A stretch of 64,000 nt of DNA from positions 25,585 to 89,584 of the IMG/VR virus record IMGVR_UViG_3300042484_000873; one strand, given 5' to 3'. The stretch comes from a virus. The position numbers and the translations under genes were made by a program. Position 1 is the first letter of the stretch. The number at the start of each line of letters is the position of its first letter. The notes under the pieces were generated by a model. That model had not been told where the DNA came from. It worked only from the letters and a program-made list of their open reading frames with translations, and did not search any database. Positions 10,396-45,594 of the stretch are shown here, one piece after another.

Positions 10396-10402
10396 TAAAT
10401 GA

Positions 10403-10408
10403 TAAATA
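10403..10408 (+). promoter_or_regulatory. T4-like late promoter core TAAATA
   Basis: gaTAAATA lies 5 nt before the ATG at 10414; the same motif recurs before many structural genes. Confidence 0.55.
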
Positions 10409-10413
10409 ATACT

Positions 10414-11186: not shown

Positions 11187-11188
11187 GA

Positions 11189-11194
11189 TAAATA
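11189..11194 (+). promoter_or_regulatory. Late promoter core TAAATA
   Basis: gaTAAATA in the intergenic gap, followed by a GGAG RBS before the tail-fibre gene. Confidence 0.5.
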
Positions 11195-11217
11195 AAGAAT
11201 ACTCGGAGTGATTTGAA

Positions 11218-12432: not shown

Positions 12433-12441
12433 GGATAAAAA

Positions 12442-13392: not shown

Positions 13393-13418
13393 TTTTTTCT
13401 GAGGTCTTTGTATCCATC

Positions 13419-13424
13419 TAAATA
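13419..13424 (+). promoter_or_regulatory. Late promoter core TAAATA heading the glycosyltransferase/radical SAM operon
   Basis: cTAAATA followed by an AGGAG RBS; downstream genes overlap continuously to 23449. Confidence 0.5.
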
Positions 13425-13439
13425 CTCTTAGGAGATTAC

Positions 13440-13748
13440 ATGGATACAAAGATTTTAATTACTGAAGCCAAAGCCCGCTTCAATCACAATTCCGCAAAAG
13501 CCTATTTAAAAGACAAATATAGTAGCAAGTTAATTGTTGCTGACCAGGGCGGCCTTTGGTGCGCTGACCAAACCACTATTTCTTTTCTAAACACAATGGA
13601 TGATGACAACTATGTCATTATGATTGATACCTTCAATAATCCAGTTCAAGTTAACCGTACACAACTATTAGAAGTATTGAAAACTACATACAATACAGTT
13701 ATGTTGGCATGGTATAAAGAATGGAAAGAGTTAGAAAGTAAGAGATGA
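13440..13748 (+). CDS. Hypothetical protein, possibly a tail-fibre assembly chaperone
   Basis: 102 aa, strong RBS, directly after the fibre genes. Confidence 0.5.
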   Translation: MDTKILITEAKARFNHNSAKAYLKDKYSSKLIVADQGGLWCADQTTISFLNTMDDDNYVIMIDTFNNPVQVNRTQLLEVLKTTYNTVMLAWYKEWKELESKR

Positions 13749-14545
13749 ATAGGGGCGTAATATTATTTGCGTTTAACTCTCCCAAATTCAATTACTATGA
13801 TATGGCTGTAGCTACAGCTAAACGCATCAATCATTTCTTAAACTTACCTGTAACACTTGTTACGGATGAAAATTCTATACCTACTCAGCCTGAGTATACA
13901 TTTGATAAGACAGTCATAGTTACTCCGGACAAAAACAACAAACGTGATTGGGGTATATGGATCAACAAAGGTAGATATCAGGCATTCGAGTTGAGTCCAT
14001 ACGATGACACTATTTTATTAGATACCGATTACTTGGTCAATTCAAATAAGCTATTACATACATTTGATTTGCCTACTGATTTTTGTTGCCATGACAACAC
14101 GCATTTTTTGATGTATCCTGATATTCCGCAAGAACTATTAAGTAACTATGGCTTCAAAACACTATGGGCTACTGTAGTAAGATTCAACAAAACTAAACGT
14201 GCTGAACAAATATTCCATTCAATGGAAATGATTCAAAATAATTTTGAACACTACGCAAATCTACATAGTTTCATTCATTCAACATTCCGTAATGATTATG
14301 CGTTAACACTAGCAACACGCATTGTTAATGGACATACTACGCCTGTCAGTGATTACATACCGTGGAATCTAGTCCATATAGGCAAGAATACTTCAATACA
14401 TAAAAACACGGATGATCCTTTTAATACTGAATATACTGTAATGTTTGATAACTGGAACAAAGGTAAAATTCGTAAAGAATACAACATAATTAAAGACATG
14501 GATTTCCATGTGTTGAACAAAGAAAACTTTTTGGAGTTGATATAA
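13745..14545 (+). CDS. GT-A fold glycosyltransferase-like protein
   Basis: RGVILFA N-terminal strand, SPYDDTILLDTD (DxD motif), RNDYA. Confidence 0.65.
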   Translation: MNRGVILFAFNSPKFNYYDMAVATAKRINHFLNLPVTLVTDENSIPTQPEYTFDKTVIVTPDKNNKRDWGIWINKGRYQAFELSPYDDTILLDTDYLVNSNKLLHTFDLPTDFCCHDNTHFLMYPDIPQELLSNYGFKTLWATVVRFNKTKRAEQIFHSMEMIQNNFEHYANLHSFIHSTFRNDYALTLATRIVNGHTTPVSDYIPWNLVHIGKNTSIHKNTDDPFNTEYTVMFDNWNKGKIRKEYNIIKDMDFHVLNKENFLELI

Positions 14546-15309
14546 TGTCTAAGGGTTTTGTAATTATGGCACAAGACACATCAAGTGTGAAATACACAAC
14601 TTGTGCGGAAGCGTTAAAGAAAAGCATATTGCGAGTCATGCCAAATGCTAACATAACTATTATCACAACTGATATGTTACCATACGGTGATTTAGCCCCA
14701 ACTAACGAGTGGAAATTAATAAACGACTGGCAAGTATATGAAGCAAGCCCGTATGATGAGACTATCAAGTTAGAAGCAGATATGTATATTCCACGCAATA
14801 TTGACCATTGGTGGGATGTATTATCGCAACAGGATGTAGTAGTGTCTAGTTCAATCAGAAATTTTAGACAAGAAATATCAGACAATAGATTCTACCGTAG
14901 ATTTATTGACGATAACAACTTACCTGACGCATACAATGCTATCACTTATTTTAAAAAATCTGATACAGCCAAGCAATTTTTTGATATTGTAAAAGATGTT
15001 TTTGAAAATTGGAATGACTACAAAGCATCATTGAAGTGCAATTCGGAAGAAATTGTAACAACAGATTGGGCATATGCTATTGCTTGCCATATTATGGGTA
15101 TTGAAAACACAATGATGCCTATGTTTAAAGAAATGGCAATGGTTCATATGAAACAATACATTAATGGTTGTCCCACTGAGAACTGGACAGATACGTTTGT
15201 TTATGAATGTTTTTCGGATCATATTAGAGTTCAAACTGTACCACAGCAATACCCGTTCCACTATCATGTAAAAAACTTTAGTGATAAAATATTAGAAAGT
15301 ATGAAATGA
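14545..15309 (+). CDS. GT-A fold glycosyltransferase-like protein (paralog of 13745)
   Basis: KGFVIMA, SPYDETIKLEAD (ExD variant), TDWAYAIA, FHYH. Confidence 0.6.
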   Translation: MSKGFVIMAQDTSSVKYTTCAEALKKSILRVMPNANITIITTDMLPYGDLAPTNEWKLINDWQVYEASPYDETIKLEADMYIPRNIDHWWDVLSQQDVVVSSSIRNFRQEISDNRFYRRFIDDNNLPDAYNAITYFKKSDTAKQFFDIVKDVFENWNDYKASLKCNSEEIVTTDWAYAIACHIMGIENTMMPMFKEMAMVHMKQYINGCPTENWTDTFVYECFSDHIRVQTVPQQYPFHYHVKNFSDKILESMK

Positions 15310-15665
15310 GTACGGACGACAACCAACAAGATTATATTATCATCTGGGAACAAGCTAAACTAGAACCACCTGAATTTAGATTGTACTACGATGATAAAGG
15401 ATCGGTAATATGCTACACAGGTGACAAGTCAATGACCGGAAATTATATTGTCATTGATGCGTTAACATTCGCTGCCGCTAGACCAGATTTAAGAGTTATT
15501 GATGGTAGGATATCTACAGCAAGCCCCAAGTCAGTAGTTTATAAACTAATGCCTGATGCCGCAGAAGGGGTAGAATGTCATCCTGATGATGTAAGCGTGG
15601 TAGTCAATAGTACACATGTAGGTGAAAGGCAGAAATGGAAATTAAACATATATGAACTCGACTGA
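15306..15665 (+). CDS. Hypothetical protein
   Basis: 119 aa, overlaps both neighbours. Confidence 0.65.
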   Translation: MSTDDNQQDYIIIWEQAKLEPPEFRLYYDDKGSVICYTGDKSMTGNYIVIDALTFAAARPDLRVIDGRISTASPKSVVYKLMPDAAEGVECHPDDVSVVVNSTHVGERQKWKLNIYELD

Positions 15666-16605
15666 TATTATTGATGTAGCTGATTTAGACTGCATTTATC
15701 TAAGTTATGACGAGCCACAGAAGGAAGAATTTTGGCTCAAGATCAAGAACATGGTGCCATGGGCTAAACGTGTAGACGGAGTTAAAGGTTCAGACGCCGC
15801 ACACAAAGCCGCAGGTGAAGCCAGCGATACAGAACGTTTCATTCTTATTGATGGCGACAACATGCCAGAAGAAAGTTTCTTTAATATTCAATTAGATTTC
15901 ACGGGTAAAGACGAGTCATTTAAACGAGCACAGTTTCGTTGGAAAGCTATCAATAACATTAACGGGTTGAGATACGGTAATGGCGGCATGAGTTCTTGGA
16001 CTAAAGAATATGTCGCCAACATGAAAACACACGAACATCAAAAAGATGGTGATGTATCACGTATTGCTGATTTCTGTATGGGCGGAGATGATAACTTGTA
16101 TTGGGCTATGTGGGATTGCTATTCAACCACATATCCAAATATGACACCATTTCAAGCATGGCGTGCAGGATTCCGCGAAGGTGTTAAGATGAGTTTAGAT
16201 AGAGGTGCTCGACCCACAGTAGATCAATTCAAAGAAACTGTGGCAAGTCGCAACTTAGATAACTTGACTATCTGGCATAACATAGGTGCAGATGTAGAGA
16301 ATGGTGACTGGGCTATATATGGTGCCCGACTTGGTACATATATGACGTTATTGACTACATGGGATCATGCAAATGTTCAATGGTTTGATAACTACATTCA
16401 AATGTGGGAAGAACAAGAACTCAGAAACCCGGTTGTCGAGGCTGCACAAATTGGTCAACAACTCAACGACAAGTTAGGTTTGCCTATGTGCAGATTAGAT
16501 GAAGCACAGAGTAAGTTCTTCAAGCGTCATTATCTTGCTGATAAATATAATCTCGGACCATTAGTAAAAGAGATGGACGTTATTAGAAAAATAGAAGGAT
16601 GGTAA
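15652..16605 (+). CDS. GT-A (GT2-like) glycosyltransferase
   Basis: DCIYLSYDEP...RVDGVKGSDAAHKAA...FILIDGDN (DxD), YGNGG, AWRAGFRE. Confidence 0.65.
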   Translation: MNSTDIIDVADLDCIYLSYDEPQKEEFWLKIKNMVPWAKRVDGVKGSDAAHKAAGEASDTERFILIDGDNMPEESFFNIQLDFTGKDESFKRAQFRWKAINNINGLRYGNGGMSSWTKEYVANMKTHEHQKDGDVSRIADFCMGGDDNLYWAMWDCYSTTYPNMTPFQAWRAGFREGVKMSLDRGARPTVDQFKETVASRNLDNLTIWHNIGADVENGDWAIYGARLGTYMTLLTTWDHANVQWFDNYIQMWEEQELRNPVVEAAQIGQQLNDKLGLPMCRLDEAQSKFFKRHYLADKYNLGPLVKEMDVIRKIEGW

Positions 16606-17549
16606 TGCAACACGAATATATTAAATTAGCACACAGTAATCCCGCACATGAGGATTGGTTCGTAGTTAACTGGTGCTTAGGTAACACATGTAATTTCGAA
16701 TGTAGTTACTGTCCAGATGATCTTCATTCAGGTAGCATTAAGTGGCCTGAGATAGAACAAATTAAACAATTTATGACTAGAGTAGCTGAACAAGTTGCTC
16801 CTAGAAAAGTATATTATGAATTAACTGGTGGTGAAGTTACACTATACAAGCATTTTACTGAAATTTGCCAACACGCCACCGCACTTGGCGCCAAAGTTGG
16901 ATTGATTAGTAATGGTAGCAGAACACTGCGTTGGTGGGAAGATAATAAACAATATTTTGACCATGTGTGTTTAAGCTTTCATCCTGAGTTTGCTGACCCT
17001 GATCACTTTGTTCAAGTTGTAAAATTATTAAACAATGATGTAAGAACACATGTAAACATTATGATGAGTCCTGAGAAGTTTGACTTCTGTTATGCTATCG
17101 CAAACAAAGTTAAAACATTAGGTAATATCAGTATGGCACTTCAGCCATTGATTCATGACTTCGGTGATACATTGTTTGACTATGATGATTTTCAGAAAAA
17201 GATTTTTGATAAACAACATGAGTTGATTGTTAAACACATCAAGCATACTAAATCATTTGATTACTATCGAGGTGCTATGAAGATGGTTAAAGAAGATGGA
17301 ACTGAAATCGTATCTAGCGCACATAGATTCATTAGTCAAAAGACAAATGATTGGAGTGGTTGGAAATGCTACAGTGGAGCAGAACAAATTGTAGTTGACT
17401 TATCTGGAGATGTGTTTAGAGGATGGTGTAAAGTTGGCGGCAAGATTGGCAATATATTTGAAAATTTTGAAGTAACCAAAACACCTGTTATTTGTAATAA
17501 AACAATGTGCCACTGTAACTTTGATATTATGAGCACGAAAGAACTATGA
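16605..17549 (+). CDS. Radical SAM protein with C-terminal SPASM-like Cys cluster
   Basis: CNFECSYC, TGGEVT, SNGSR; C-terminal C..G...C...CNKTMCHC. Start taken at the ATG overlapping the upstream stop. Confidence 0.88.
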   Translation: MQHEYIKLAHSNPAHEDWFVVNWCLGNTCNFECSYCPDDLHSGSIKWPEIEQIKQFMTRVAEQVAPRKVYYELTGGEVTLYKHFTEICQHATALGAKVGLISNGSRTLRWWEDNKQYFDHVCLSFHPEFADPDHFVQVVKLLNNDVRTHVNIMMSPEKFDFCYAIANKVKTLGNISMALQPLIHDFGDTLFDYDDFQKKIFDKQHELIVKHIKHTKSFDYYRGAMKMVKEDGTEIVSSAHRFISQKTNDWSGWKCYSGAEQIVVDLSGDVFRGWCKVGGKIGNIFENFEVTKTPVICNKTMCHCNFDIMSTKEL

Positions 17550-18907
17550 GTAATCCACTAGACACAATATGCGATTTAAAATGGAACTACCCTATCTTTG
17601 GTATGGATAGAGGTGAATTCAGAAGTTGCTGTAGGACTCCTACTAATTTAGTAACAGAGAACGAGTTACAAGAATTTGGCGTTGATGCTTTCTTGAATTC
17701 ACCTAAACAAAGACAAGAACGCTTGGACTTAATTCAGGGTCGTAGAACTGAATCATGTGTTAGTTGCTGGAAACTAGAAGATTCTGGCATACAGAGTCCT
17801 CGTCATCACCCTAAACAAATGTGGTGGCAGTTAATAAAATCTAAACAAGTCACACCCAGTGAATACTCTGATGAAAAACTATCATTGGAATTAAGTAAGA
17901 TTAATGATATCAATCATCCGGCATTGTATAGTTATAAGCCATACATGTTAGAAATCAGCATGGGTAATACCTGTGATTTGAAATGCATGTACTGTAGTCA
18001 TCACTATTCTACTCAGTGGGCAACGGAACGTATCAAGTACCATGAAATAACACAAGAACAGTATGATAGAGAATTTCCCAAAGCACCACCGAGCTTTGAC
18101 GGTAAATTTTGGGAATGGTTCAATGAGACCGGAAGACATAGTATCACACGACTTGGATTGATTGGTGGCGAACCATTAATCATGCCAGAGTTCTATACTT
18201 TCATGGATAAAGTCATTGCCAGTGTTGAAGAAATCAACGACCAGCGTAAAGAAAAGATTACATTATGGATAGTAAGTAACTTTAACACACCGTCAAATTA
18301 TCTACAAAAGGTAATGCAGTATCTACCCAAGATATCCAAAGTATTCAACTTAGAGATATTGGGCAGTATGGAAAGCGTTGGTGAAAAATCAGAGTACATT
18401 CGCAACGGCGTTAGCTGGGAACGATTCACTAAAAACATTGACACTATCTTAAGTAACAAAGAACTAGAGTTTGATTTTGGCTTCATCATGAGTGTTAACG
18501 CATTGAATATAACCAGTAACAAAGACTTTATTGCTTATACAAAAGCATTGTATGAAAAGCATGGTAGACCAGTGATATTGAAGCAAAACTTAGTTAGTTT
18601 TCCTAGCTGGCAAAGTCCAATGATACTGTCACAAGACTTCATCCCCTACATAGAAGATACTATTCAATATCTAAATGACAATGCTGAATCTATGCCAACG
18701 GTAAAAGACTCACTTGGAACATGGTCAGCATATGCTAAATTCCTACAAACTATTATTGATGGTATCAACAATCAATCAATTGATAGATTAAATGACAGAA
18801 AGAAATTCGCTGAGTGGTTCGATACGTATGATTCACGCAGGGGACTAAAGTTAACTGGCACATTCCCGGAATACACTGATTTCTATAACATGTGTAAGGG
18901 TTTATAA
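17546..18907 (+). CDS. Radical SAM protein with N-terminal Twitch/SPASM domain
   Basis: N-terminal C...SCC...CVSCW; CDLKCMYC; GGEP. Confidence 0.88.
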   Translation: MSNPLDTICDLKWNYPIFGMDRGEFRSCCRTPTNLVTENELQEFGVDAFLNSPKQRQERLDLIQGRRTESCVSCWKLEDSGIQSPRHHPKQMWWQLIKSKQVTPSEYSDEKLSLELSKINDINHPALYSYKPYMLEISMGNTCDLKCMYCSHHYSTQWATERIKYHEITQEQYDREFPKAPPSFDGKFWEWFNETGRHSITRLGLIGGEPLIMPEFYTFMDKVIASVEEINDQRKEKITLWIVSNFNTPSNYLQKVMQYLPKISKVFNLEILGSMESVGEKSEYIRNGVSWERFTKNIDTILSNKELEFDFGFIMSVNALNITSNKDFIAYTKALYEKHGRPVILKQNLVSFPSWQSPMILSQDFIPYIEDTIQYLNDNAESMPTVKDSLGTWSAYAKFLQTIIDGINNQSIDRLNDRKKFAEWFDTYDSRRGLKLTGTFPEYTDFYNMCKGL

Positions 18908-20304
18908 TGGATAAGAAACAATTTATTCCTATCTTTTCCGGCGATGACGGCAAGGGTTCTAAAATTTGGTATACTTCTAAGTTATTAGACGAACAGTATG
19001 GATTTGATCTTGTTGAAATCATCAAGAAAACTTCTCCCACATCAACACATAGAGCAACAGATAGTGAATATACAGAACTTGTGCGAGATCAAGTTCCTGA
19101 TAACTTTTGTTTATATCCATTTACACATTTTCAATTAGATCCAGATGGTAGAGCACGTCCTTGTTGTAAGTATAAGGTAGGTGATCCTACATGGCAGAAA
19201 GATGTTCCTAAACTACCTGATGTAAACATAGGTGATCTCTGGGAGCAAGAAGAATTTCAAAATATACGTAGTCAGTTTTTAAGAAACGAAAGACCATCTG
19301 GGTGTAAAGCATGTTGGGATGAAGAAGCAGCAGGAGTACCTAGTATGAGATTGACTAGAGAAAAGGGCGGCAAAGAGCACCCACATGCAACTTTCTTCCA
19401 TCATATTCCTAGACTTTATCCAAAGAGCCTAGACTTAAAACTAAGCAACTTGTGCAATCTCAAGTGTAGAATATGTACTCCTTTTCTAAGCACACAATGG
19501 ATGAAAGAAATCATCGATTTGGGTGTACATGATATGGGAGATGTTAGAACATTCACTAGCAATGCTAAAGAAAAGTTTTCTGCTGATCCTGCAAACGAAG
19601 AAATATTAAAACAGTGGGCACCTACTATTGACTACTTAGAATTCTATGGTGGTGAACCATTAATGCAACAAGAACATGATAAAATTTTGCGTATCATGAA
19701 TGAGCACGGTAAGCCAGAACACACTGGATTATACTATAACACTAATAGCACTATATGTGACGAAGAATTCTTTAAATTGTGGGCTCCTTTCAAGGAAGTA
19801 ACTATAAATTTCAGCATAGACGATGTTGGTACTAGATTCGAATATCAAAGAAAAAATGCTATTTGGGCTGAGACACTAGATAACATGAACAAATATAAAG
19901 AATTAGCATTAAAATACAACGTCAATATGATAGTGAGACTCTATACTACAGTAGGGATTTTGAATGTATTGTATCTGCCGGAATTTTTTGAGTTTGTTAA
20001 ACAACATGAAATGAAAGTGGTATTGAACCTAGTTCATTACCCTCATCATTATTCTATTGTCAATCTACCGGCTGAAGTTAAAGATATCGTAAAAGAAAAA
20101 TTGCTATCACTTGACACTGGAAAGTACTTAACTGAATGGTCTCCTACAATTGATAACATCATAAATTTCATGTATGGATCAGAGTGTAATACGGAGTTAC
20201 TTAAAACGTTCTTTCATAAAACACATATACATGATGAATATAGAAATGAGTCGTTTAACAATACTTTCCCTGAATTATATGAGATGTTAAAGAAGTATGA
20301 ATAA
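18907..20304 (+). CDS. Radical SAM protein with N-terminal Twitch domain
   Basis: FCLYPF...PCC...CKACW; CNLKCRIC; GGEP; YNTN; SID. Confidence 0.88.
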   Translation: MDKKQFIPIFSGDDGKGSKIWYTSKLLDEQYGFDLVEIIKKTSPTSTHRATDSEYTELVRDQVPDNFCLYPFTHFQLDPDGRARPCCKYKVGDPTWQKDVPKLPDVNIGDLWEQEEFQNIRSQFLRNERPSGCKACWDEEAAGVPSMRLTREKGGKEHPHATFFHHIPRLYPKSLDLKLSNLCNLKCRICTPFLSTQWMKEIIDLGVHDMGDVRTFTSNAKEKFSADPANEEILKQWAPTIDYLEFYGGEPLMQQEHDKILRIMNEHGKPEHTGLYYNTNSTICDEEFFKLWAPFKEVTINFSIDDVGTRFEYQRKNAIWAETLDNMNKYKELALKYNVNMIVRLYTTVGILNVLYLPEFFEFVKQHEMKVVLNLVHYPHHYSIVNLPAEVKDIVKEKLLSLDTGKYLTEWSPTIDNIINFMYGSECNTELLKTFFHKTHIHDEYRNESFNNTFPELYEMLKKYE

Positions 20305-26031: not shown

Positions 26032-26040
26032 AAAATCTCT

Positions 26041-27615: not shown

Positions 27616-27629
27616 TTTATATCCTTAAA

Positions 27630-28775: not shown

Positions 28776-28777
28776 AT

Positions 28778-31907: not shown

Positions 31908-31915
31908 AATATTAT

Positions 31916-32578: not shown

Positions 32579-33624
32579 TATTTTCTATCTCCAAATAAGA
32601 TGTAATCTTCTTTAGTATAGCCTTCCATTACTTCACTACCTGAACCCATGTCAGGAGTACTAGTTTTGTTATTCAAATCACCGCGAATAGGAACGACAGC
32701 CCAAGTACAATAATCTGCAAAATGAGGTAATGCTTTTAGTTCTTCTTCCAAACTTAATGTCTCATCACGGTTGTGCGGCGCCATCATAAACTTAACTTCT
32801 AAATGACCACAATCACCGTGCTCTGCTTTTTCTTTTGCAATAGCTTCAACTACTTTAACAAACTTCTTACGGTCATAGAACTCATAATGAACACTTAAAT
32901 TCAAGTCACCATAATGAATAACTTCTTTGTAATAGTCAGGTAAACGACTACCATTACTGTGCAGACTAACATGATGCCCACATGCGTTTAAATAACGTAA
33001 CCAATCTAAGAAATCTTTGTTAACAGTTGGCTCACCGCCGCTGATAATAAAATTAACACTCTCACCTTTGGTGAACTTAGTTTCAATCAAATGAGTAGCT
33101 CTCATTAAATCTTCTAAGGGCTTATGGGGGTCAGTATTATTATGAATCCAGGGCCAGCAATAACTACAATCGTAGTTACATCTACGACCTATTTCCCAGT
33201 ATATTTGTTTTTGTGTGCTAGCATGAGTGCGCTCCATACCAACAAATTCTGTCAATTCATCATTTCGTAATTCGTGCTGGGCAGGTAAATCTTGACCTTT
33301 ACGTAGTAATGGCTTATATTCTAATTTACTGGTTTTGGGAATGAACAAATCAGCACCGCAACTACATACATTTTTAGTACAATTAATCCAATCTTCAGGT
33401 ACACTAAAGTCATCCCAAACACTGCCCAACTTACCGCCCACTCTACAGCTAGCGGTCCAAACACCACCGTCCATATCGATGAATAAGCTATCGACTCCGG
33501 CGCCACATTTCCAATCAGTTAAGTAGTTTAATTTTGCTCCAACTAGTTCGTCAGTTGACCAGTCTCTCCATGATCCGTTTATGCCATATGTTCTTATGGG
33601 CTTTCCAGGGGTTATATCCATCAC
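32578..33624 (-). CDS. Radical SAM protein, domain-permuted (SPASM-like domain first)
   Basis: N-terminal WKCGAG...SC...CTKNVCSC, then CNYDCSYC, SGGEPT, SNGSR; true start may be the ATG at 33621. Confidence 0.87.
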   Translation of the reverse strand: MMDITPGKPIRTYGINGSWRDWSTDELVGAKLNYLTDWKCGAGVDSLFIDMDGGVWTASCRVGGKLGSVWDDFSVPEDWINCTKNVCSCGADLFIPKTSKLEYKPLLRKGQDLPAQHELRNDELTEFVGMERTHASTQKQIYWEIGRRCNYDCSYCWPWIHNNTDPHKPLEDLMRATHLIETKFTKGESVNFIISGGEPTVNKDFLDWLRYLNACGHHVSLHSNGSRLPDYYKEVIHYGDLNLSVHYEFYDRKKFVKVVEAIAKEKAEHGDCGHLEVKFMMAPHNRDETLSLEEELKALPHFADYCTWAVVPIRGDLNNKTSTPDMGSGSEVMEGYTKEDYILFGDRK

Positions 33625-33639
33625 AAATCCTTTATATGA

Positions 33640-33704
33640 TATTTATCAGGATCTATTTTCAGGCATAAATTAATAATTTTTACAAAGGATAGGATTACTA
33701 AATA
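33640..33704. promoter_or_regulatory. Divergent pair of late promoter cores
   Basis: TATTTA at 33640-33645 (TAAATA on the minus strand) and TAAATA at 33699-33704, 5 nt before the ATG at 33710. Confidence 0.55.
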
Positions 33705-33709
33705 TAAGC

Positions 33710-35053
33710 ATGATAAACAACGAAGATACCGTATGCCACTTGCGTTGGGGATATCCCAACTTTAGTCTCTCCCGCAATGAAATTCGCACCTGCTGCAAGA
33801 CACCATTTCAAACCATCAATGATGGTATGATGGACAAGTACGGTACAGATATTTTTCTGAACACTGATTATCAGAAAAAAAGAAGAATGGAAATGCTTCA
33901 GGGAGTTAAACATAGTGACTGCAAAAGTTGCTGGAGTTTAGAAGAAGCCGGAGCAAAAAGTTTGCGTGGTAACAACCCATACGGGTTTATAGATTATGCC
34001 AACAGACATCAGATGTTTCAGGAATTTACGCTTCCTACGCTAGTAGAGATAGCTAATCAAGTTACAATAGACAGTAAAATACTAGAAAGCAATAATCCAT
34101 TCATGCTTGAGGTAAGTCTAGGTAATACATGTGATATGAAGTGTATGTACTGTAATCATGTATATAGTAGCCAGTGGGCATCAGAAAGTTTAAAGAACAA
34201 TACCATCAACATAGAAATCTATAAACAAGTACAAACAAATCCCAATGAAAGATTCATTAATTTGTTTTGGAATTGGGTAGATACAAAAGCAAAACATTCA
34301 TTAGACAGAATTGGTATCATCGGCGGTGAACCATTGATTACTCCTGAGTTCTATGATTTCTTAGATAAGCTAATAGAAGTCTATGCTGATAAAGAAGGTT
34401 CTAAAACTAGAATCTGGGTAGTTACTAATTTAAATGCCACAGACAATTACTATAACAAGTTTTTAGAATACATTCCTAAACTATCAGATAAATTCATATT
34501 AGAAGTTCACATCAGTATGGAAGCATTGAGTGACCAAGCTGAATATATTCGCAATGGACTTGAGTGGAGTCGATTTGAAAGTAATGTAAATAAAATATTT
34601 GCTAGTGATGCTGACATTGAATTAGCATTTTTACCAAGTGTCACTGCGTTGGCTATACCAAGATTTCCTAAGTTTCTCAAATGGGTCTATGATTTATCTA
34701 AGACACATGACAAGGCAGTCATGCTTAAACAAAACATAGTGACACATCCCGATGTTCAATCACCGTTTATATTGCCTCCAGAATTTGCTGACTACTTAGA
34801 TCCTGCGATTGATTGGATGCAAAGTATATCAGTAGATATGCCAGATGTTAGTGACAAATTTGGCACATGGCCCGGCTATACTGATTTTTTAATTAAACTA
34901 CGTGATGGTATTAGATTCAACAAGAATGACAACACTATGCTTAAACAAAGATTTGCTACATGGTTTGATGACTTTGATAAAAAAAGAAATTTGAATTTTG
35001 TTAACACGTTCCCTGAACTAGCAAAATTCTACGATGAATGTAAAACACAATAA
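33710..35053 (+). CDS. Radical SAM protein with N-terminal Twitch domain (paralog of 17546)
   Basis: DTVC...TCC...CKSCW; CDMKCMYC; GGEP. Confidence 0.88.
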   Translation: MINNEDTVCHLRWGYPNFSLSRNEIRTCCKTPFQTINDGMMDKYGTDIFLNTDYQKKRRMEMLQGVKHSDCKSCWSLEEAGAKSLRGNNPYGFIDYANRHQMFQEFTLPTLVEIANQVTIDSKILESNNPFMLEVSLGNTCDMKCMYCNHVYSSQWASESLKNNTINIEIYKQVQTNPNERFINLFWNWVDTKAKHSLDRIGIIGGEPLITPEFYDFLDKLIEVYADKEGSKTRIWVVTNLNATDNYYNKFLEYIPKLSDKFILEVHISMEALSDQAEYIRNGLEWSRFESNVNKIFASDADIELAFLPSVTALAIPRFPKFLKWVYDLSKTHDKAVMLKQNIVTHPDVQSPFILPPEFADYLDPAIDWMQSISVDMPDVSDKFGTWPGYTDFLIKLRDGIRFNKNDNTMLKQRFATWFDDFDKKRNLNFVNTFPELAKFYDECKTQ

Positions 35054-35062
35054 GGAGTTAGT

Positions 35063-35164
35063 ATGAAATGGATTAAAAATTTAATAGATAAAATTCGAAT
35101 GGAAATTTACTATCGAAAACGTCTTAAAGAACTTAAAAAACGAGACCCATTCATCTACAAATAA
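35063..35164 (+). CDS. 33-aa basic peptide preceding the carbamoyltransferase, not in the ORF track
   Basis: TAAGGAG RBS; MKWIKNLIDKIRMEIYYRKRLKELKKRDPFIYK*; fills the gap exactly. Confidence 0.75.
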   Translation: MKWIKNLIDKIRMEIYYRKRLKELKKRDPFIYK

Positions 35165-35166
35165 GC

Positions 35167-36666
35167 ATGAACTATATTGGAATATCATGCGGCTTCCATG
35201 ATGCCGCAGTAAGTGTTATAGATGACAACGGTAACATTTTGTTTGCGGGTCACAGTGAACGATACAGTAAAAACAAACATGATTCACACCTATGTCTCCC
35301 TTTAATCACTGATGCCAAATCATACATGGATAGTGATGAATATCAAGTTCACTACTATGAAAGACCTTGGGTTAAGTATTTAAGACAACTGCGTTCCGGA
35401 GAACCACGCTCATTGCGTAACTTATCAGCTAAGAATGTGATAGGGTCATCTATAGTTAAGCATCAGCTAGATAACAAAACTATACACACTCACAATCATC
35501 ATTTAAGTCATGCTGCCGCAGGCTTTCAGACAAGTCCCTACGATGATGCTACTGTAGTTGTTATTGACGCTATTGGCGAGTTTGATACTATAAGCATTTA
35601 CAACGCATGGTATGATAAGAATGGCAAAGCACAGTATAAGAAGTTATGGGGGCAACATTATCCGCATAGTATAGGATTATTCTATAGTGCTATGACACAA
35701 CGTGTAGGACTACGCCCATTAGACGAAGAATATATTCTCATGGGTATGGCAGCTTATGGTAAACCAAACTTAAAAAAAGAATTAAAAGAAATGTCTGACA
35801 CATTAGTAAAATCATACAAAGACATTACTTTCAAACATAACTTGCACATGGGTGTAACTGATACTTTCTTAGAAGGTGCAGATGACATGGATATCGCATG
35901 TAGCGCACAACTAATTGCTGAACAGTTAATTACTAATGTTATCAGTAAAGCAAAAATGTTGGGTGGTAGTAAGAATCTTGTATATAGTGGCGGCGTAGCA
36001 TTAAATTGTTTAGCAAATAGATTATTAGGAAATTTTTATGAAAACATTTGGATTATGCCTAATCCTGGCGATGCTGGTTCTAGTCTTGGAGCGGCCTGTC
36101 TTGGCTATAGTAAACGTGTTAATTGGACTAACGCTTTTCTCGGCTATGACATTAGTGGGCCTTATCCTACTAATCGTATACTTGATAGCCTACTCACTGA
36201 TAAAATTGTGGGAGTCGCTAACGGACGAGCAGAGTTTGGCCCAAGGGCCTTGGGAAATAGAAGCTTACTTGCAGACCCTAGAGGAACAGAAATCAAGGAC
36301 GCAGTAAATGAAATCAAACGAAGACAAAAATTTAGACCTTTTGCGCCAGTCATTTTGGAGGAATATGCTGATACTTATTTTGATATGCCTCGTGGTTTCA
36401 ATAATAGTAGGTATATGCAGTCAATCGCCCGTTGTAGGGTTCCTGACTTATTTCCTGCTATCGTTCACCACGACGGCACTAGTCGTGTCCAGACTGTCCC
36501 AAAAGATGGAAGTGGAATACGAGAACTCCTTGAAAAATGGTACGTCTTGACTGGTTGTCCAATGTTATTGAACACATCATTGAACATCAGGGGCGAGCCA
36601 ATGGTAAATGACCAAAAAGATGCGGATCGTTTTGAATTAATGTATAATGTTAAAGTTATATCATAA
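35167..36666 (+). CDS. O-carbamoyltransferase (NodU/CmcH/TobZ family)
   Basis: HDAAV, ERYS..KHD, HHLSHAA, GGVALN, EFGPRALGNRS, FRPFAP, LNTSLN. Confidence 0.93.
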   Translation: MNYIGISCGFHDAAVSVIDDNGNILFAGHSERYSKNKHDSHLCLPLITDAKSYMDSDEYQVHYYERPWVKYLRQLRSGEPRSLRNLSAKNVIGSSIVKHQLDNKTIHTHNHHLSHAAAGFQTSPYDDATVVVIDAIGEFDTISIYNAWYDKNGKAQYKKLWGQHYPHSIGLFYSAMTQRVGLRPLDEEYILMGMAAYGKPNLKKELKEMSDTLVKSYKDITFKHNLHMGVTDTFLEGADDMDIACSAQLIAEQLITNVISKAKMLGGSKNLVYSGGVALNCLANRLLGNFYENIWIMPNPGDAGSSLGAACLGYSKRVNWTNAFLGYDISGPYPTNRILDSLLTDKIVGVANGRAEFGPRALGNRSLLADPRGTEIKDAVNEIKRRQKFRPFAPVILEEYADTYFDMPRGFNNSRYMQSIARCRVPDLFPAIVHHDGTSRVQTVPKDGSGIRELLEKWYVLTGCPMLLNTSLNIRGEPMVNDQKDADRFELMYNVKVIS

Positions 36667-36676
36667 GTAAGTATCT

Positions 36677-39600
36677 ATGTTAAGAGATGTATTTTATTAC
36701 GGTAAAAAACCGAATGCCCACCCAAGAGAACAACACGCAATTGATTTAGCTGATGCTAGACAACAATCTACCACAGAACATTTTTGGATAATTAACGAAC
36801 TATGTGATTATCGAAATTTTGACTGGGACTTTGATTTTGATTTCTTGCCTGACGAAGATGTGTGGGCACAAGAGCATAACAATGTATGGCCTAGTCAGCA
36901 TCAAAAAGATAGCGGCACCTGGTTATGTAACACGGATAATACACACGCATTAACAATCTACCGCAATGATGTAGAACCGGTGATTCGCCGTAGAGAAAAA
37001 TCAGACGCTTGGATATTAGTTGACTTGATTGATGAAACTAAGTTTGATTTATCATGGCATCCAGACCCAACGGATCCCCCATTCATTTACAAATGGGGTA
37101 GTAAGTTTATACCAGCACAAGTTCAAGCCTGCTTAGAATATCATACTCCTAAGGCTACTCAAGTTAAGTACATGGATCAGAATATTGAACTATTACCTAA
37201 CATTGAATGCTGGAAAGAATATTATTCAATTGATAAAACTACATTTGACATGAGTTGGAGACCAGATCCAACAAGCCCTCCCTACATATATGTATGGGGT
37301 AACAAGTATATTCCCGGTGAATTAGAAGCAACTATTGAGTATCATTGTCCCGGTGCAACAGAACGCAAGTATGTGGATACTCTTGTTGACGTATTACCGC
37401 AGCAAGAACGATGGAATATAGTACAACAACCAAAATACTTTGATTACAGTTGGAGACCTGATCCACGTGAACCGGCATACATCTATGTATGGGGTAATAA
37501 ACACATTGCCGGAGAACTAAAGTCCACGATTGAATATCACTGCCCCGGTGCAACAGAACGCAAATACATGGGTGACATTGAAGTAGAACCTGAAATGGAT
37601 CGATGGAAAGTAATACAGGACATTGACAAAACTAAGTTTGACATGAGTTGGAGACCGGATCCGCGTGAACCGGCATACATCTATGTATGGGGTAACAAAT
37701 ATGACCCTGCTGAAGTTAAGCCTACTTTAGAATATACAGTACCGGGTGCTACTGATAAAAAGTACATGGGTATTGTAGATTTAGAACCAGAGTGGGATAG
37801 ATGGAAAGAACATATACTTGTAGATAGAAACTCATTTGATTTTAGTTGGAGACCAGACCCCAACTTACATGAACTACCTTATATCTATGTATGGGGTAAT
37901 AAATTTCACCCAGCTGAAGAAAAACCCACTGTTGAATATCACGTGCCGGGTGCTACTGAGTACAAGTACATGGGTATTGTTGATTTAGAACCTGAATGGG
38001 ATAGATGGAATATAGTTATTCCTATTGATATGAATAGTTTTGATTTTAGATGGAGACCTGATCCTAATCTATATGAACCACCGATGATATATGTTTTTGG
38101 TAACAAGTGGAATGATAGTGCGACTGAACCAACAATAGAGTATATTGTTCCCGGCGCCACTGTTAAAAAATATATGGACTATCCTCTTGCTATACCTAAG
38201 ATTGATATGTCACTATGGACAGTAAGCAACAACGATGACTTAGAAACATTTGACTTTAGTTGGAGACCTAATCCACATAGTCCACCTCAAATATATCAGT
38301 GGGCTGATAATGGTCCTCGCTATACTGTACCTGATGCGACAGAAGTAGTATTGATGGAACGTATTGAAAATACACAGAAATCAGAAGTTAATCGTTATAA
38401 AATTAAAACAACATTAGAAGAATTGATATTAGAACACCAAGATGAAGTGTTCTGGGCTATTAATCCTGACTTAAGTTATAGTAGATTTGATTTCAACTGG
38501 AGACCAAATGAAGAAAACTTTAGACACATAAATGTATTTGGTAACGAATATAGTAAGAACACACAAACTTACTATGTTAACGCACCATTGTACATGATGG
38601 GTCATAGAGAGTTTAACTATGTTGAGGATCAAAAAGTTGAAGTTGATAGTAACTTGAGCATGTTCTTTGTTGATAAGAGCAATGTAGAAAGCAAATATCG
38701 TTTTGAAGAACTACAAAAGCGTTATCCCAAGATCCAAAAGACAAGATACTTGAACAGTTGGGTTGACACTATCAATCGTTGTATCAATAAATCTGAGACA
38801 GAATTGTGTTGGATATTGAACAGCGAGCTAGATTACACTGGCTTTACATTTGATTATTATCCTAGCCCATGGCAACAGAAAATGGTTCATGTGTTTGGCA
38901 CACAATGGAGTCACTGGGGAACTACATTCATGGTTAACAAAGAATCATTCCCTGAAGATACAAAGTATGTAAAAATTATAGAACACTTGAATAACCTCAA
39001 TTTTGTCAAAACAAAACGAGCATTCGCAAGCAATTGTATATATGATGTGTACTTGATTGACTACGGTAACGACAGCACAGCTAACATTACTTCATTAATT
39101 GAAAACAAAACAAAGAAGAATGTCTACACCATTGAGTATGCTGGAGATTATTTGTCTACATTGAAAAATATGTTGTATGAGTTAGGTATCAAAAAGGATC
39201 ACTATATCTGGGTATGTAGTTCTATTTGTGACTACACTAATTTTGACTTCACTTACATATGTGACCCCTTCTCATTAGAACAATTACATGTATTCCCCAG
39301 TGATAAACAAAAATACGGAGACACATTCTTTGTAAATGTAAATCGATTACGTACATTGGTTGAAGATTTAGATACATTAGAAAATATCGATAAGATTAAC
39401 TTTAATCAACATCAGCAAGTAAAACGTTTACCTGCTCCTAGCTTTATAATTGAAAGTGATACACATGTCTCTGTTACTAATACTGATTTTGATTGGCCTT
39501 ATGCTACGTTTGTTACGGCTGACAACAAAGAAATAAAAGTTGTTGACAATGAACCAATTAGCTTATGGTCAAAAGAATCTAAGAACATATTAATTACTAG

Positions 39601-40381
39601 CACCGGCGGAACACATATTATTGTTCCAAAAGAAGCTAAAGAGTATGTTAAAAATGAATTGTATGATTACCCATACATTGCTAAATCTAACAAACTAGCA
39701 ACATCCCAGCCACTGGATATAGTCTTCCTAAGCAACGGCGAAACCGATGCCGACGAGAATTATGAACATTTACTGAACGTGACTAGGGGATTACCTAATA
39801 GAGTTGTTAGAGTTGATGGTATCAATGGTCGTGTACAAGCCTATCATGCCGCAGCAAAAGCAAGTAACACACCCTGGATGTTTACCGTGTTTGCTAAGTT
39901 GCGTATCAACAGTAAGTTTGATTTCTCATGGCAACCAGACAGACTGCAAGTTCCTAAGCATTACATTTTCTACGCAAGTAACCCAGTCAATGGTTTAGTA
40001 TATGGTCACCAGGCTATGATTGCGTACAATAAACAGATTACATTAGGTAACATAGGTAAAGGTCTTGACTTTACATTGGATAGCGAACACGAAGTTGTTG
40101 AATTGAATAGTGGTGTAGCAAGATACAACACTGATGAATTTAGCACATGGCGTACTAGCTTCCGTGAAGTAATTAAGTTAAGACTAGATGATAGCCCGGT
40201 AAGCAAAGAAAGATTGAAAACGTGGTCGACCGTGGGTGTAGGTGACTTTGCTCAATATAGCATTCAGGGTGCCAAAGATGCTGTAGAATACTATGTCGAA
40301 GTTAACGGTGACATGGATAAACTTAAATTAAGTTATGAATGGTCATGGCTCAAAGATAAATTTTTATCCTCGACTAAATAA
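36677..40381 (+). CDS. Large repeat protein built of GT-A-like modules
   Basis: 1234 aa with tandem FD.SWRPDP...YIYVWGNK...EY..PGAT..KY repeats; C-terminal domain homologous to 15652 (DIVFLS..E...RVDG..G..AYHAAA...WRTSFRE). Confidence 0.7.
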   Translation: MLRDVFYYGKKPNAHPREQHAIDLADARQQSTTEHFWIINELCDYRNFDWDFDFDFLPDEDVWAQEHNNVWPSQHQKDSGTWLCNTDNTHALTIYRNDVEPVIRRREKSDAWILVDLIDETKFDLSWHPDPTDPPFIYKWGSKFIPAQVQACLEYHTPKATQVKYMDQNIELLPNIECWKEYYSIDKTTFDMSWRPDPTSPPYIYVWGNKYIPGELEATIEYHCPGATERKYVDTLVDVLPQQERWNIVQQPKYFDYSWRPDPREPAYIYVWGNKHIAGELKSTIEYHCPGATERKYMGDIEVEPEMDRWKVIQDIDKTKFDMSWRPDPREPAYIYVWGNKYDPAEVKPTLEYTVPGATDKKYMGIVDLEPEWDRWKEHILVDRNSFDFSWRPDPNLHELPYIYVWGNKFHPAEEKPTVEYHVPGATEYKYMGIVDLEPEWDRWNIVIPIDMNSFDFRWRPDPNLYEPPMIYVFGNKWNDSATEPTIEYIVPGATVKKYMDYPLAIPKIDMSLWTVSNNDDLETFDFSWRPNPHSPPQIYQWADNGPRYTVPDATEVVLMERIENTQKSEVNRYKIKTTLEELILEHQDEVFWAINPDLSYSRFDFNWRPNEENFRHINVFGNEYSKNTQTYYVNAPLYMMGHREFNYVEDQKVEVDSNLSMFFVDKSNVESKYRFEELQKRYPKIQKTRYLNSWVDTINRCINKSETELCWILNSELDYTGFTFDYYPSPWQQKMVHVFGTQWSHWGTTFMVNKESFPEDTKYVKIIEHLNNLNFVKTKRAFASNCIYDVYLIDYGNDSTANITSLIENKTKKNVYTIEYAGDYLSTLKNMLYELGIKKDHYIWVCSSICDYTNFDFTYICDPFSLEQLHVFPSDKQKYGDTFFVNVNRLRTLVEDLDTLENIDKINFNQHQQVKRLPAPSFIIESDTHVSVTNTDFDWPYATFVTADNKEIKVVDNEPISLWSKESKNILITSTGGTHIIVPKEAKEYVKNELYDYPYIAKSNKLATSQPLDIVFLSNGETDADENYEHLLNVTRGLPNRVVRVDGINGRVQAYHAAAKASNTPWMFTVFAKLRINSKFDFSWQPDRLQVPKHYIFYASNPVNGLVYGHQAMIAYNKQITLGNIGKGLDFTLDSEHEVVELNSGVARYNTDEFSTWRTSFREVIKLRLDDSPVSKERLKTWSTVGVGDFAQYSIQGAKDAVEYYVEVNGDMDKLKLSYEWSWLKDKFLSSTK
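37000..38340 (+). repeat. Intragenic tandem repeats, ~190-205 nt period, about 7 units
   Basis: Near-identical DNA blocks, e.g. gtgaaccggcatacatctatgtatggggtaa (twice) and aagtacatgggtattgt.gatttagaacc.ga.tgggatagatggaa (twice). Confidence 0.85.
40375..40380 (+). promoter_or_regulatory. Late promoter core TAAATA
   Basis: cTAAATA upstream of the AGGAG RBS of the lipoprotein gene. Confidence 0.4.
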
Positions 40382-45507: not shown

Positions 45508-45514
45508 TGATAAT

Positions 45515-45569: not shown

Positions 45570-45594
45570 AACACATAAACACTAAAGGACTAAT

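Follow-up and report, generated by a model that had tools for sequence, protein, structure and literature searches.

Pelagimyophages and cyanomyophages carry a hypervariable tail-fiber island, the "host recognition cluster," which is rich in glycosyltransferases (GTs) of family GT8 and is located between VrlC and gp14 (Zaragoza-Solas et al., 2020; PMC7029224). According to the available text of that study, cassettes of radical S-adenosylmethionine (SAM) genes make the difference between two near-identical islands. For large aquatic phages, the available text of a 2025 paper describes four core glycosyltransferase groups and no radical SAM enzyme (PMC12619734). Here, we analyze a 64,000-nt stretch of viral DNA, referred to as the window, which comprises bases 25585–89584 of the 89,584-b IMG/VR virus record IMGVR_UViG_3300042484_000873. 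Between window positions 13419 and 40381, it contains a cluster of glycosyltransferase-like, radical SAM and further tailoring genes directly downstream of tail-fiber-like genes. To known virus-encoded glycosylation and the host recognition cluster, this cluster adds an unprecedented load of uncharacterized radical SAM enzymes. We tentatively read it as a pathway that builds and edits glycans in the cytoplasm and has a functional tie to a Thr/Ser-rich tail-fiber-like protein. This reading is partly supported by a fixed block of fiber and GT genes, GT-A folds with DxD motifs, genes for nucleoside diphosphate (NDP) sugars, the relatives of a carbamoyltransferase and the solubility of the proteins.

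CheckV estimates the completeness of the record at ~17%, and the record is thus a fragment of a very large phage. The window proteins include a T4-type large terminase, a gp9/10-like baseplate protein, a thymidylate synthase, a porin and a MoxR/VWA pair. The same stretch of DNA is present in 24 lake or freshwater DNA sequencing runs, with no RNA run among those listed. Megablast of 20 kb of the window against 50,697 phage records returned no match, i.e., no cultured relative, and a literature search on phage clusters of radical SAM, GT and carbamoyltransferase genes and on virion glycosylation gave nothing on the system beyond the available text of PMC7029224. Family content was assessed by scanning 42 window proteins with Pfam. 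In the following, genes are named by their lower window coordinate (Table 1), and L numbers denote fetched loci of relatives.

A fiber-linked head block and its variable cargo

The left part of the cluster is constant among related phages. Scanning with the 15652 family matched at least 592 viral contigs, from which 80 anchor loci were kept, and in 80/80 a 12442-like gene and both GT8-like paralogs lie upstream of the 15652 homolog in the same order. A 10566 homolog is found upstream in 73/80 anchor loci (loci with 80 nt of upstream sequence available). At least one radical SAM gene of the Twitch-first type described below follows the 15652 homolog in 76/80 loci. Full flanks are available for 49 loci, which carry 1 (5 loci), 2 (2), 4 (12), 5 (22), 6 (7) or 7 (1) radical SAM genes in the 10 kb downstream, and the order of the subfamilies of these genes varies. 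The first-pass annotation of the window had named fixed anchors with variable radical SAM cargo as the pattern that would support its glycan reading, and this is the pattern found. The carbamoyltransferase is within reach in only 7/80 loci, as its usual place is outside the 10-kb flank.

With one Twitch-first radical SAM protein as the query, a scan of viral contigs yielded 24 loci. Seven close ones (65–84% identity) are syntenic with the window, and in two of the seven (L003, L004) the entire gene order between 10566 and 35167 is visible. In L003, L004, L005, L006, and L007, the B12-type radical SAM gene (homologous to 23446) directly abuts the 32578 homolog, and 26041–31916 is therefore an insert specific to the lineage of the window. 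This insert consists of an oxygenase-like/methyltransferase fusion (26041, its first gene, which is missing from L003–L007), three radical SAM genes, an oxygenase-like gene and a methyltransferase gene. At this site, L008 carries a 27630-like and a 30002-like gene, and further relatives carry other inserts. The 17 distant loci (L009–L025, group B, ~27% identity) carry a conserved six-enzyme radical SAM module with four Twitch-first proteins, one B12-type protein (720 aa) and one 16599-like protein; no 15652-type head block occurs in their fetched stretch. On its flanks, the group B module has two or three DUF6071 genes together with DUF6267 and a weak cytidylyltransferase-like protein.

Among the 50,697 phage records, only the Ralstonia jumbo phage RsoM2USA (MG752970) has a 15652 homolog. 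Its gene order matches that of the window: ORF355 is 12442-like with an 11218-like N-terminus, ORF354 is 13440-like (hhalign 98.1%), ORF353 and ORF352 are GT8-like, ORF350 is 15652-like (39% identity), ORF349 is a Twitch-first radical SAM protein and ORF348 is 15652/36677-like. Hence, a fiber-like gene, a small gene, two GT8-like genes, a GT-A gene and a Twitch-first radical SAM gene lie beside structural genes in both. A second locus (ORF199–202) encodes a Twitch-first radical SAM protein and a carbamoyltransferase with 45% identity to 35167. In contrast to the window with its 13 radical SAM genes, the 72 kb fetched from RsoM2USA hold two. ORF356, ORF359 and ORF361–364, beside the cluster run, are described as structural, tail sheath and baseplate proteins, and bands from purified virions were attributed to ORF356 and ORF361 (PMC8504454). 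The cluster open reading frames (ORFs) are all annotated as hypothetical, and ORF349, 353, 355, 199, and 202 are not mentioned in the main text of that paper as available (PMC8504454). As RsoM2USA has the core block, its target (virion, envelope, DNA or metabolite) can be addressed by virion mass spectrometry and gene deletions.

The fiber-like gene 12442 is found with the block in every case (80/80 anchor loci) and is homologous to RsoM2USA ORF355 (hhalign 98.5%, E 3.7e-15); its product is the prime candidate for an acceptor. The neighboring 11218 contains 31% Ser + Thr + Asn. Farther upstream, a giant Thr-rich frame is open for 6,289 codons across the left edge of the window (record 17113–35979), so that the true protein may far exceed the 3,464 aa visible in the window. 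It has a weak match to RsoM2USA ORF361 (28% identity over 106 aa, E 7e-8) and is probably a virion or fiber protein.

The GT assignments were obtained from structure models of 13745 and 15652, based on alignments of sequences from related loci, with 14545 assigned as a paralog of 13745. The model of 13745 has glycogenin as its top Foldseek match (E 2.8e-7, probability 1.0, TM 0.44–0.47), with 335 matches at E ≤1e-3 that also include other retaining GT8/GT6 structures, and both aspartates of its DTD motif (D93 and D95) are invariant. In the EAD motif of its paralog 14545, the second Asp alone is invariant. The model of 15652 superimposes on GT-A transferases with VIA Z 10.1–8.2 over residues 6–163 (B4GALNT1 10.1, ThuS 9.5, STIV A197 9.4, PBCV-1 A64R 8.4), its top Foldseek matches are GT2/GT-A throughout, and D67, G68, and D69 of its DGD motif are invariant. 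Nucleotidyltransferases of the same fold class reach Z 8.3–8.8 against this model, where Z 7–8 is common for unrelated models. The modeled GT-A fold of 15652 is thus supported, while the nucleotidyltransferase scores leave its exact activity and transferase type putative. The 15652 family comprises at least 8000 metagenome clusters, all unnamed. Residues 1012–1203 of 36677 are homologous to 15652 (hhalign 98.3%) and have lost the DGD motif. Hence, of the four GT-A-like genes first proposed, 13745, 14545, and 15652 stand and 36677 is only a degenerate, 15652-like case. The repeats of 36677 have a period of 198–204 nt with 75–81% DNA identity across 2.8 copies; they match no family, and an Atlas search gave no usable match. 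Homologs of 36677 come after the carbamoyltransferase in L035, L050, L051, L132, and L135. None of 13745, 14545, 15652, and 36677 has a Pfam match, and the GT-like proteins have no NCBIfam or PDB sequence-profile match; for 10 proteins without a family, PHROGs returned only an unnamed family for 14545 and a weak label for 31236.

Solubility and fiber linkage both bear on where the sugars would be placed. By a crude test, none of the 22 cluster proteins has a 19-residue segment with mean Kyte-Doolittle hydropathy ≥1.6, and no flippase, polymerase or lipid-carrier transferase was found among the Pfam-scanned window proteins. The pathway therefore looks cytoplasmic. This stands against the alternative that the cluster remodels the host envelope by altering O-antigen or other surface glycans, for instance to block superinfection or to prevent adsorption of progeny to debris. 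The same scan revealed no protein of the Wzx, Wzy, WaaL or polyprenyl-phosphate transferase type, and the block is strictly linked to a fiber-like gene (80/80 loci) and is located within the structural module of RsoM2USA. Envelope remodeling is the function favored by the authors of the host recognition cluster, in which GT8 is the commonest GT family (available text of PMC7029224). Moreover, a Gram-negative porin gene (Porin_4, E 1e-21) at window positions 42705–43589 indicates that the phage does touch the envelope. We consider this alternative unlikely and retain the fiber-directed cytoplasmic pathway.

Table 1. Features of the cluster and of adjoining regions, in window coordinates.
Feature	Position	Strand	Basis or remark
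3' part of giant Thr-rich open frame	1–10395	+	T 12.9%, S+T+N 28%
Conserved 206-aa protein opening the fixed head block	10566–11186	+	No Pfam match
Tail fiber or spike protein, C-terminal intramolecular-chaperone (IMC) domain	11218–12432	+	Peptidase_G2 IMC, 28.5 bits vs. cut-off 25
Fiber-like Thr/Ser/Gly/Ala-rich protein	12442–13392	+	S+T+N 36%; always linked to GT block
CTAAATA box, candidate T4-late-type promoter	13418–13424	+	16 nt before 13440 start codon, within inverted repeat
Conserved 102-aa protein, first operon gene	13440–13748	+	No family match; in 78/80 anchor loci
GT8-like (retaining GT-A fold) glycosyltransferase-like protein, invariant DTD	13745–14545	+	Model pLDDT 83, Foldseek
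Paralog of 13745, EAD replacing DTD	14545–15309	+	hhalign 98.8%, E 5.8e-17
Small 119-aa protein	15306–15665	+	No family match; in 68/80 anchor loci
GT-A/GT2-like glycosyltransferase-like anchor protein, invariant DGD	15652–16605	+	Model pLDDT 78; family without Pfam model
Radical SAM protein with C-terminal Cys-rich domain, paralog of 51447 and 53484	16599–17549	+	PF04055, 40.4 bits
Four tandem overlapping N-terminal-Twitch radical SAM genes	17546–18907, 18907–20304, 20297–21478, 21471–22619	+	NF033640, Pfam, tree
DUF6071 protein, SGNH-like motifs; repeatedly accompanies arrays of Twitch-first radical SAM genes	22616–23449	+	
Cobalamin-type radical SAM protein fused to C-terminal class I methyltransferase-like domain, 861 aa	23446–26031	−	PF02310, PF04055
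Two-domain protein: N-terminal HxD...H (2-oxoglutarate (2OG)-oxygenase-like by motif), C-terminal class I methyltransferase	26041–27615	−	
Three N-terminal-Twitch radical SAM genes of the insert	27630–28775, 28778–30001, 30002–31276	−	Pfam, NF033640, tree
HxD...H protein, paralog of 26041 N-terminus	31236–31907	−	
Class I methyltransferase (Methyltransf_24)	31916–32578	−	42.7 bits vs. cut-off 26.3
Radical SAM protein with N-terminal Cys-rich domain, permuted form of 16599, heading minus-strand unit	32578–33624	−	
N-terminal-Twitch radical SAM protein, 17546 clade	33710–35053	+	NF033640, 250 bits
33-codon micro-ORF, invariant DPFIY tail	35063–35164	+	2 nt before carbamoyltransferase start
NodU/TobZ/NovN-type O-carbamoyltransferase	35167–36666	+	Carbam_trans_N, Carbam_trans_C
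1234-aa protein: ~8 repeats of ~66 aa (FDxSWxPDP...YIYxWGN), then 15652-like domain without DxD	36677–40381	+	
Satellite operon: SDR 4,6-dehydratase/epimerase-like, radical SAM, DegT/PseC-like aminotransferase, radical SAM	50506–54437	+	

Radical SAM proteins and further tailoring enzymes

Between 13419 and 40381, PF04055 matches 11 genes, namely 16599, 17546, 18907, 20297, 21471, and 33710 on the plus strand and 23446, 27630, 28778, 30002, and 32578 on the minus strand, and Pfam adds two radical SAM genes outside the cluster (51447 and 53484). A six-frame search of the whole record gave 13 matches, every one in the window, of which 11 are above the curated cut-off and two (17546 and 27630) below. 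Pfam and the six-frame search thus recover the numbers of the first-pass annotation (11 in the cluster, 13 in the window), and its sorting of the 11 into eight proteins with an N-terminal Twitch domain, one cobalamin-dependent protein and two with SPASM-like clusters is likewise upheld by the domain data that follow.

In the eight Twitch-first proteins, the Cys-rich domain precedes the CxxxCxxC core (8/8), and in six of the genes Pfam reports a SPASM match followed by a Radical_SAM match. For NCBIfam NF033640 (N_Twi_rSAM, twitch domain-containing radical SAM protein), the curated whole-protein cut-off is 170 bits, which six of the eight exceed: 17546 with 247, 18907 with 336, 20297 with 307, 28778 with 235, 30002 with 231, and 33710 with 250 bits. 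The cut-off is missed by 21471 (155 bits) and 27630 (56 bits), which still show an N-terminal SPASM Pfam match. No paper on this family was found in a full-text literature search. Across an alignment of 13 Twitch-first sequences, conservation is complete for C10, C78, C125, C129, and C132 and almost complete for C28, C29, and C75. Their N-terminal part can be aligned with the auxiliary-cluster domain of BtrN (E 1.5e-8), and the rest of BtrN has no match; the nearest solved cores are 8vpo (an uncharacterized protein), SkfB and viperin.

In a FastTree phylogeny of 144 Twitch-first sequences, which has local support values only and several long branches, the eight paralogs are spread over no fewer than four deep clades, all of which also include sequences from genome contigs. 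The only close pair is 28778 and 30002 (55% identity), and recent in-genome amplification of a single radical SAM gene was rejected in view of the depth of these clades. The remaining radical SAM proteins differ in architecture. The cores of 16599 and 32578 share 29% identity (E 4e-17), and the Cys-rich domain of the former (residues 240–314, C-terminus) aligns to that of the latter (residues 23–97, N-terminus; E 9e-15), which is a natural domain permutation. Some proteins in related loci are fusions, either of a 16599-like radical SAM protein with a 15652-like or another domain (L006:5087–7903, 938 aa; L029:7575–9983, 802 aa) or of 15652-like with 36677-like parts (L078:2864–4450, 528 aa), which hints that the joined proteins work together. 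In 23446, a B12-binding domain (PF02310, 49.6 bits, cut-off 32.1) precedes the core (PF04055, 56.3 bits, cut-off 29.5). The protein reaches no equivalog cut-off, its best being the PhpK family (119 bits, far under the cut-off of that family), and its best PDB match is AprD4 (E 1.8e-7).

The radical SAM proteins have peptide maturases as their best NCBIfam secondary matches, and 23446 matches C-methyltransferases of ribosomally synthesized and post-translationally modified peptides (RiPPs) at 100 bits, under the cut-off. These matches raise the alternative of direct protein modification, in which the radical SAM, B12 and methyltransferase enzymes would act on side chains or backbone of the Thr/Ser/Asn-rich fiber proteins by epimerization, C-methylation or cross-linking, as in proteusin-type maturation, and the GTs would add a simple sugar. 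The composition of the adjacent fiber proteins (31–36% Ser + Thr + Asn; 12.9% Thr in the giant protein) would suit such chemistry. However, there is no domain resembling a RiPP recognition element (RRE), and the N-terminus is occupied by the Twitch domain. Furthermore, the arrays are conserved together with NDP-sugar genes and the carbamoyltransferase gene, and the bacterial homologs abut GT2 genes, not precursor-like genes. Direct modification of the fiber proteins appears very unlikely to us, and glycan editing remains the reading that we follow.

The accompanying enzymes mostly agree with their early labels. Three class I methyltransferase domains had been proposed and are present, in 31916, in the C-terminus of 26041 and in the C-terminus of 23446, of which residues 649–861 align to 31916 (31% identity, E 2e-34). 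Of the two proposed 2OG oxygenase domains, what stands is a pair of paralogs, 31236 and residues 33–258 of 26041 (42% identity, E 1e-59), with a common HxD...H...R pattern; the oxygenase label itself rests on this motif only. Neither has a Pfam or other profile match or a PDB match. The Atlas matches of 31236 are viral hypothetical clusters, one with DUF6445 on 14% of its members, and a weak PHROGs label of "endonuclease V" (E 0.0034) was set aside. The presumed SGNH protein 22616 belongs to DUF6071 (32.8 bits, cut-off 27), while the SGNH label derives from end motifs seen by eye (GCS... and ...GHP); DUF6071 also occurs in group B loci and in L035.

Outside the cluster, the satellite operon at 50506–54437 is probably a source of NDP-amino or NDP-deoxy sugars, as judged from its gene content. 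Its SDR gene has dTDP-glucose 4,6-dehydratase as the best match (115 bits, under the cut-off). The SDR and DegT genes lie ~10 kb from the cluster here and directly adjoin it in L035, L050, and L051. Between the two regions, window positions 44404–46875 encode a MoxR-type AAA ATPase beside a DUF2201 metallopeptidase/VWA protein.

The predicted O-carbamoyltransferase is confirmed in 35167, in which both domains exceed their cut-offs (Carbam_trans_N, E 2e-39, 136.5 bits; Carbam_trans_C, E 1e-47, 162.4 bits); the NodU equivalog cut-off is missed (137 vs. 1000 bits). The nearest solved relatives are NovN (E 1e-49), GdmN and TobZ (E 1e-36), which act on sugars or polyketide hydroxyls. The micro-ORF directly upstream is translationally coupled to 35167. 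Across nine loci, the encoded peptide has 12 invariant positions including the C-terminal DPFIY. It is kept in L003, L004, L007, L035, L036, L037, L050, and L051 and is weakly recognizable in RsoM2USA; it lies immediately 5' of the carbamoyltransferase gene in L003, L004, L007, L035, and L037 and one gene apart in L050 and L051. It occurs in none of 17 group B loci and in none of seven loci with bacterial-type carbamoyltransferases. An origin as a split-off piece of longer bacterial carbamoyltransferases was ruled out (short, chance-level matches, E ≥0.6), and a complex prediction of peptide and carbamoyltransferase, run without controls, gave no answer (score 0.00). In L050, a ferredoxin-NADP reductase-like gene (FAD_binding_6 + NAD_binding_1; L050:14386–15108) lies between the micro-ORF and the carbamoyltransferase gene and may provide electrons for the radical SAM enzymes.

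The conservation of the micro-ORF keeps alive a reading in which the product is a free or peptide-derived metabolite, either an aminoglycoside- or nucleoside-like sugar compound or the matured 33-aa peptide with later glycosylation. Mycofactocin and pyrroloquinoline quinone (PQQ) are the examples of peptide maturation to compare. Such a product would fit the peptide-directed character typical of SPASM/Twitch radical SAM enzymes (the NCBIfam secondary matches and SkfB) and the resemblance of the palette to antibiotic tailoring (NovN, TobZ, AprD4 and the BtrN domain). The first-pass annotation had matched this palette to aminoglycoside pathways, and the match holds at the family level (BtrN domain, E 1.5e-8; AprD4, E 2e-7), whereas the 42 scanned proteins yielded no aminoglycoside core enzyme for cyclitol or aminocyclitol formation or any other core step. 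In addition, Pfam, PHROGs and NCBIfam scans revealed no RRE, protease or core scaffold enzyme. The peptide goes with the carbamoyltransferase and not with the radical SAM arrays, and it is absent from the group B and bacterial-type loci; the strict linkage to a fiber gene is hard to explain by a metabolite. We regard a metabolite as quite unlikely.

Bacterial relatives give a further view of the Twitch-first family. From 219 relatives found in a genome scan, 80 were kept, most of them in metagenome-assembled genomes (MAGs) of Bdellovibrionota including megabase contigs and some in Bacteroidota. They often form arrays of 2–8 paralogs together with 16599-like and 32578-like genes and a carbamoyltransferase of 30–32% identity. 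On Bdellovibrionota contigs of up to 3 Mb (L046, L049, L052, L053, L080, L090, L094, L098 and others), the family is strongly expanded, with several separate loci per chromosome and up to five genes in a row. Six loci binned to unrelated taxa (L035, L036, L037, L041, L050, and L051) have the phage-type head block and are probably phage DNA in MAG bins. Neighbors were tallied at 26 of the 80 genome-contig loci, those on contigs of at least ~120 kb (other such loci were not used), counting ORFs of 110–700 aa at locus positions 5900–15300 without a BLAST match to window proteins (130 of the first 141). Glycos_transf_2 is the commonest Pfam family (9/130), followed by GT2-like families and ABC transporters. 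In L061 (Bdellovibrionales), two Twitch-first genes lie in a row, the first of them overlapping with a GT2 gene, and next come a 32578-like gene and an MFS transporter gene; this order could also be taken to favor a metabolite. A known intact bacterial pathway as the source was rejected, because the nearest bacterial-labeled sets (L029, L033, and L045; 31–54% identity) are themselves uncharacterized.

Expression signals and the proposed pathway

T4-type late promoters have a TATAAATA-like box at about −10 and depend on gp55, gp33, and gp45. The TAAATA boxes at which the three transcription units had been proposed to begin are present at 13419 (+), 33645 (−), and 33699 (+). A 13-nt inverted repeat (13406–13452) brackets the first CTAAATA box and the ribosome-binding site and includes the start codon of 13440; its halves (...ATCCAT/ATGGAT...) recur in the close relatives L107, L115, and L131. 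On the minus strand, ATAAATA ends 19 nt before the start of 32578. TAAATA precedes 13440-like genes at 36/80 loci, at −21/−22 in 24 of them, and is found 25–29 nt upstream of 11218 homologs in 31/35. Before internal genes, the counts are 0/80 (13745-like gene), 1/80, and 1/82. CTAAATA occurs nine times in the window, fewer than the mean of 18 after shuffling. Of the 84 TAAATA in the whole record, 18 lie ≤60 nt upstream of a same-strand start, in zones that make up ~2% of positions by an estimate using a rough 67-gene call. Hence, the boxes are real and locally conserved, and by analogy to T4 the cluster may be expressed late.

A late-type box and linkage to fiber genes would be less expected if the GTs and tailoring enzymes decorated modified bases of the phage DNA to evade restriction. 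Radical SAM steps do occur in some pathways of base hypermodification. Phage GTs glycosylate DNA with diverse glycans (available text of PMC12619734, which cites a 2024 Cell Reports paper). In the window, however, the 42 scanned proteins gave no sign of a hydroxymethylase, a base kinase or a DNA-binding domain, where the record covers ~17% of the genome, and the single ThyA-family gene of the record passes the thymidylate synthase equivalog cut-offs and retains the Asn of PFNIAS, as a bona fide thymidylate synthase does. DNA hypermodification is therefore highly improbable in our assessment.

The reading that we prefer, a glycan pathway tied to the fiber, would add a sugar substrate, a fiber acceptor, late timing, a product and individual reactions to the observed gene content, folds, conservation pattern and protein solubility. 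A T4-late-type promoter before 13440 would drive the fixed head block, which includes 12442, the small proteins 13440 and 15306, the active-looking 13745 with its variant 14545, and the GT-A protein 15652. The transferases might draw on host NDP-sugars and on amino or deoxy sugars from the 50506–54437 operon, and the glycan would be laid on one or more Thr/Ser-rich fiber proteins in the cytoplasm before assembly. Afterward, the swappable cargo would edit the sugars. The eight radical SAM enzymes of the Twitch-first type, which represent four or more old subfamilies, could act by radical H-abstraction, for example in oxidation, epimerization, deoxygenation or the formation of C–C or C–X bonds. 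The B12-type enzyme might provide C-methylation, with class I methyltransferases also in the cargo, and the two HxD...H proteins hydroxylation. The DUF6071 esterase- or acyltransferase-like protein and the TobZ/NovN-type O-carbamoyltransferase might edit the sugars further. Differences in cargo among close relatives would then give rise to different surface chemistries of the particles. Compared with the late virion-glycan pathway of the first-pass annotation, the sugar-centered pathway and the fiber link are kept (12442-like gene in 80/80 loci; RsoM2USA), while the virion as target and the timing stay conjectural.

Several points weigh against this pathway. The glycan, its acceptor and a transcript of the cluster are all presumptive. 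SPASM/Twitch radical SAM enzymes are known above all for modifying peptides, and the conserved 33-aa peptide beside the carbamoyltransferase has no role in a glycan model. Since sequence profiles give no match, the GT label rests on predicted folds of moderate score (TM 0.44–0.47, Z ~10). The GT2 enrichment near the bacterial homologs is modest (9/130), and most neighbors are unrelated housekeeping genes. With respect to timing, the CTAAATA box at 33698–33704 lies only 6 nt before the ATG of 33710. More distant relatives (L139, L147, L155, L163, and L179) lack CTAAATA and show a GC-rich hairpin plus a TATAAT-type box in the ~50 nt that precede the 13440-like gene. Their TATAAT-type box is 6–8 nt from the ATG, which suggests a different promoter class or leaderless transcripts, and "late" is therefore not valid across the family. 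Finally, the authors describing such fiber islands prefer modification of host O-chains (available text of PMC7029224).

If the pathway exists, it would be the densest known concentration of radical SAM enzymes devoted to a glycan, with 13 enzymes in 64 kb, and NF033640, a catalogued family without a known reaction, would gain a substrate class. The system is common, as the anchor gene occurs on at least 592 viral contigs and its family spans at least 8000 metagenome protein clusters, and it offers a testable link between hypervariable fiber islands and particle surface chemistry. More speculatively, the Twitch-first family might constitute a new class of radical glycan-editing enzymes, the cassettes of which are shuffled behind the fixed block of fiber and GT genes in large aquatic and soil phages, so that every strain would bear its own heavily edited sugar coat on the fibers, a combinatorial "chemical serotype" of the virion that tunes host range or evades recognition by hosts or grazers; we hold this extension to be doubtful.

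Comparison with described systems

Individual enzymes of the window resemble those of antibiotic pathways. The B12-type core of 23446 is nearest to AprD4 and 35167 is nearest to NovN and TobZ. In BtrN, the domain shared with the Twitch-first proteins is C-terminal, whereas it is N-terminal in the window. The window also differs from the BtrN, AprD4, TobZ, and NovN pathways in its low identities to them, the lack of pathway core enzymes and its context in a phage structural module. Within NF033640, to which six of the eight paralogs belong by score (21471 and 27630 lie below the cut-off), the Cys-rich domain before CxxxCxxC is the common architecture.

Viruses with soluble GT-A enzymes are the second point of comparison. 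PBCV-1 encodes A64R (PDB 2p72), and Freeman et al., as cited in PMC12619734, reportedly described glycosylation of mycobacteriophage capsids and tails in 2023. In these systems, soluble viral GT-A enzymes modify structural proteins in the cytoplasm, and the putative GTs of the window likewise look soluble. PBCV-1 and the mycobacteriophages employ one to a few GTs and lack tailoring of the radical SAM, B12, carbamoyl and methyl types, in contrast to the window, where the glycan is presumptive.

In bacteria, soluble GT8 enzymes such as GlyE glycosylate serine-rich-repeat adhesins, and GlyE (PDB 5gvw) is the rank-8 fold match of 13745 (E 2.1e-6). Both systems place a Ser/Thr-rich fibrous surface protein beside cytoplasmic GT8-type enzymes; a GtfA/B-type initiating enzyme, which is part of the adhesin system, was not found in the window.

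The closest published description of such a system is the host recognition cluster. Like the window, it is a variable island in the structural region of T4-like aquatic myophages and contains tail fibers, GTs and radical SAM cassettes (PMC7029224). In the available text, the island receives a descriptive label, without enzyme families, a fixed head block or a module of carbamoyltransferase and peptide (PMC7029224), and these are the components that the window and its relatives add to such islands.

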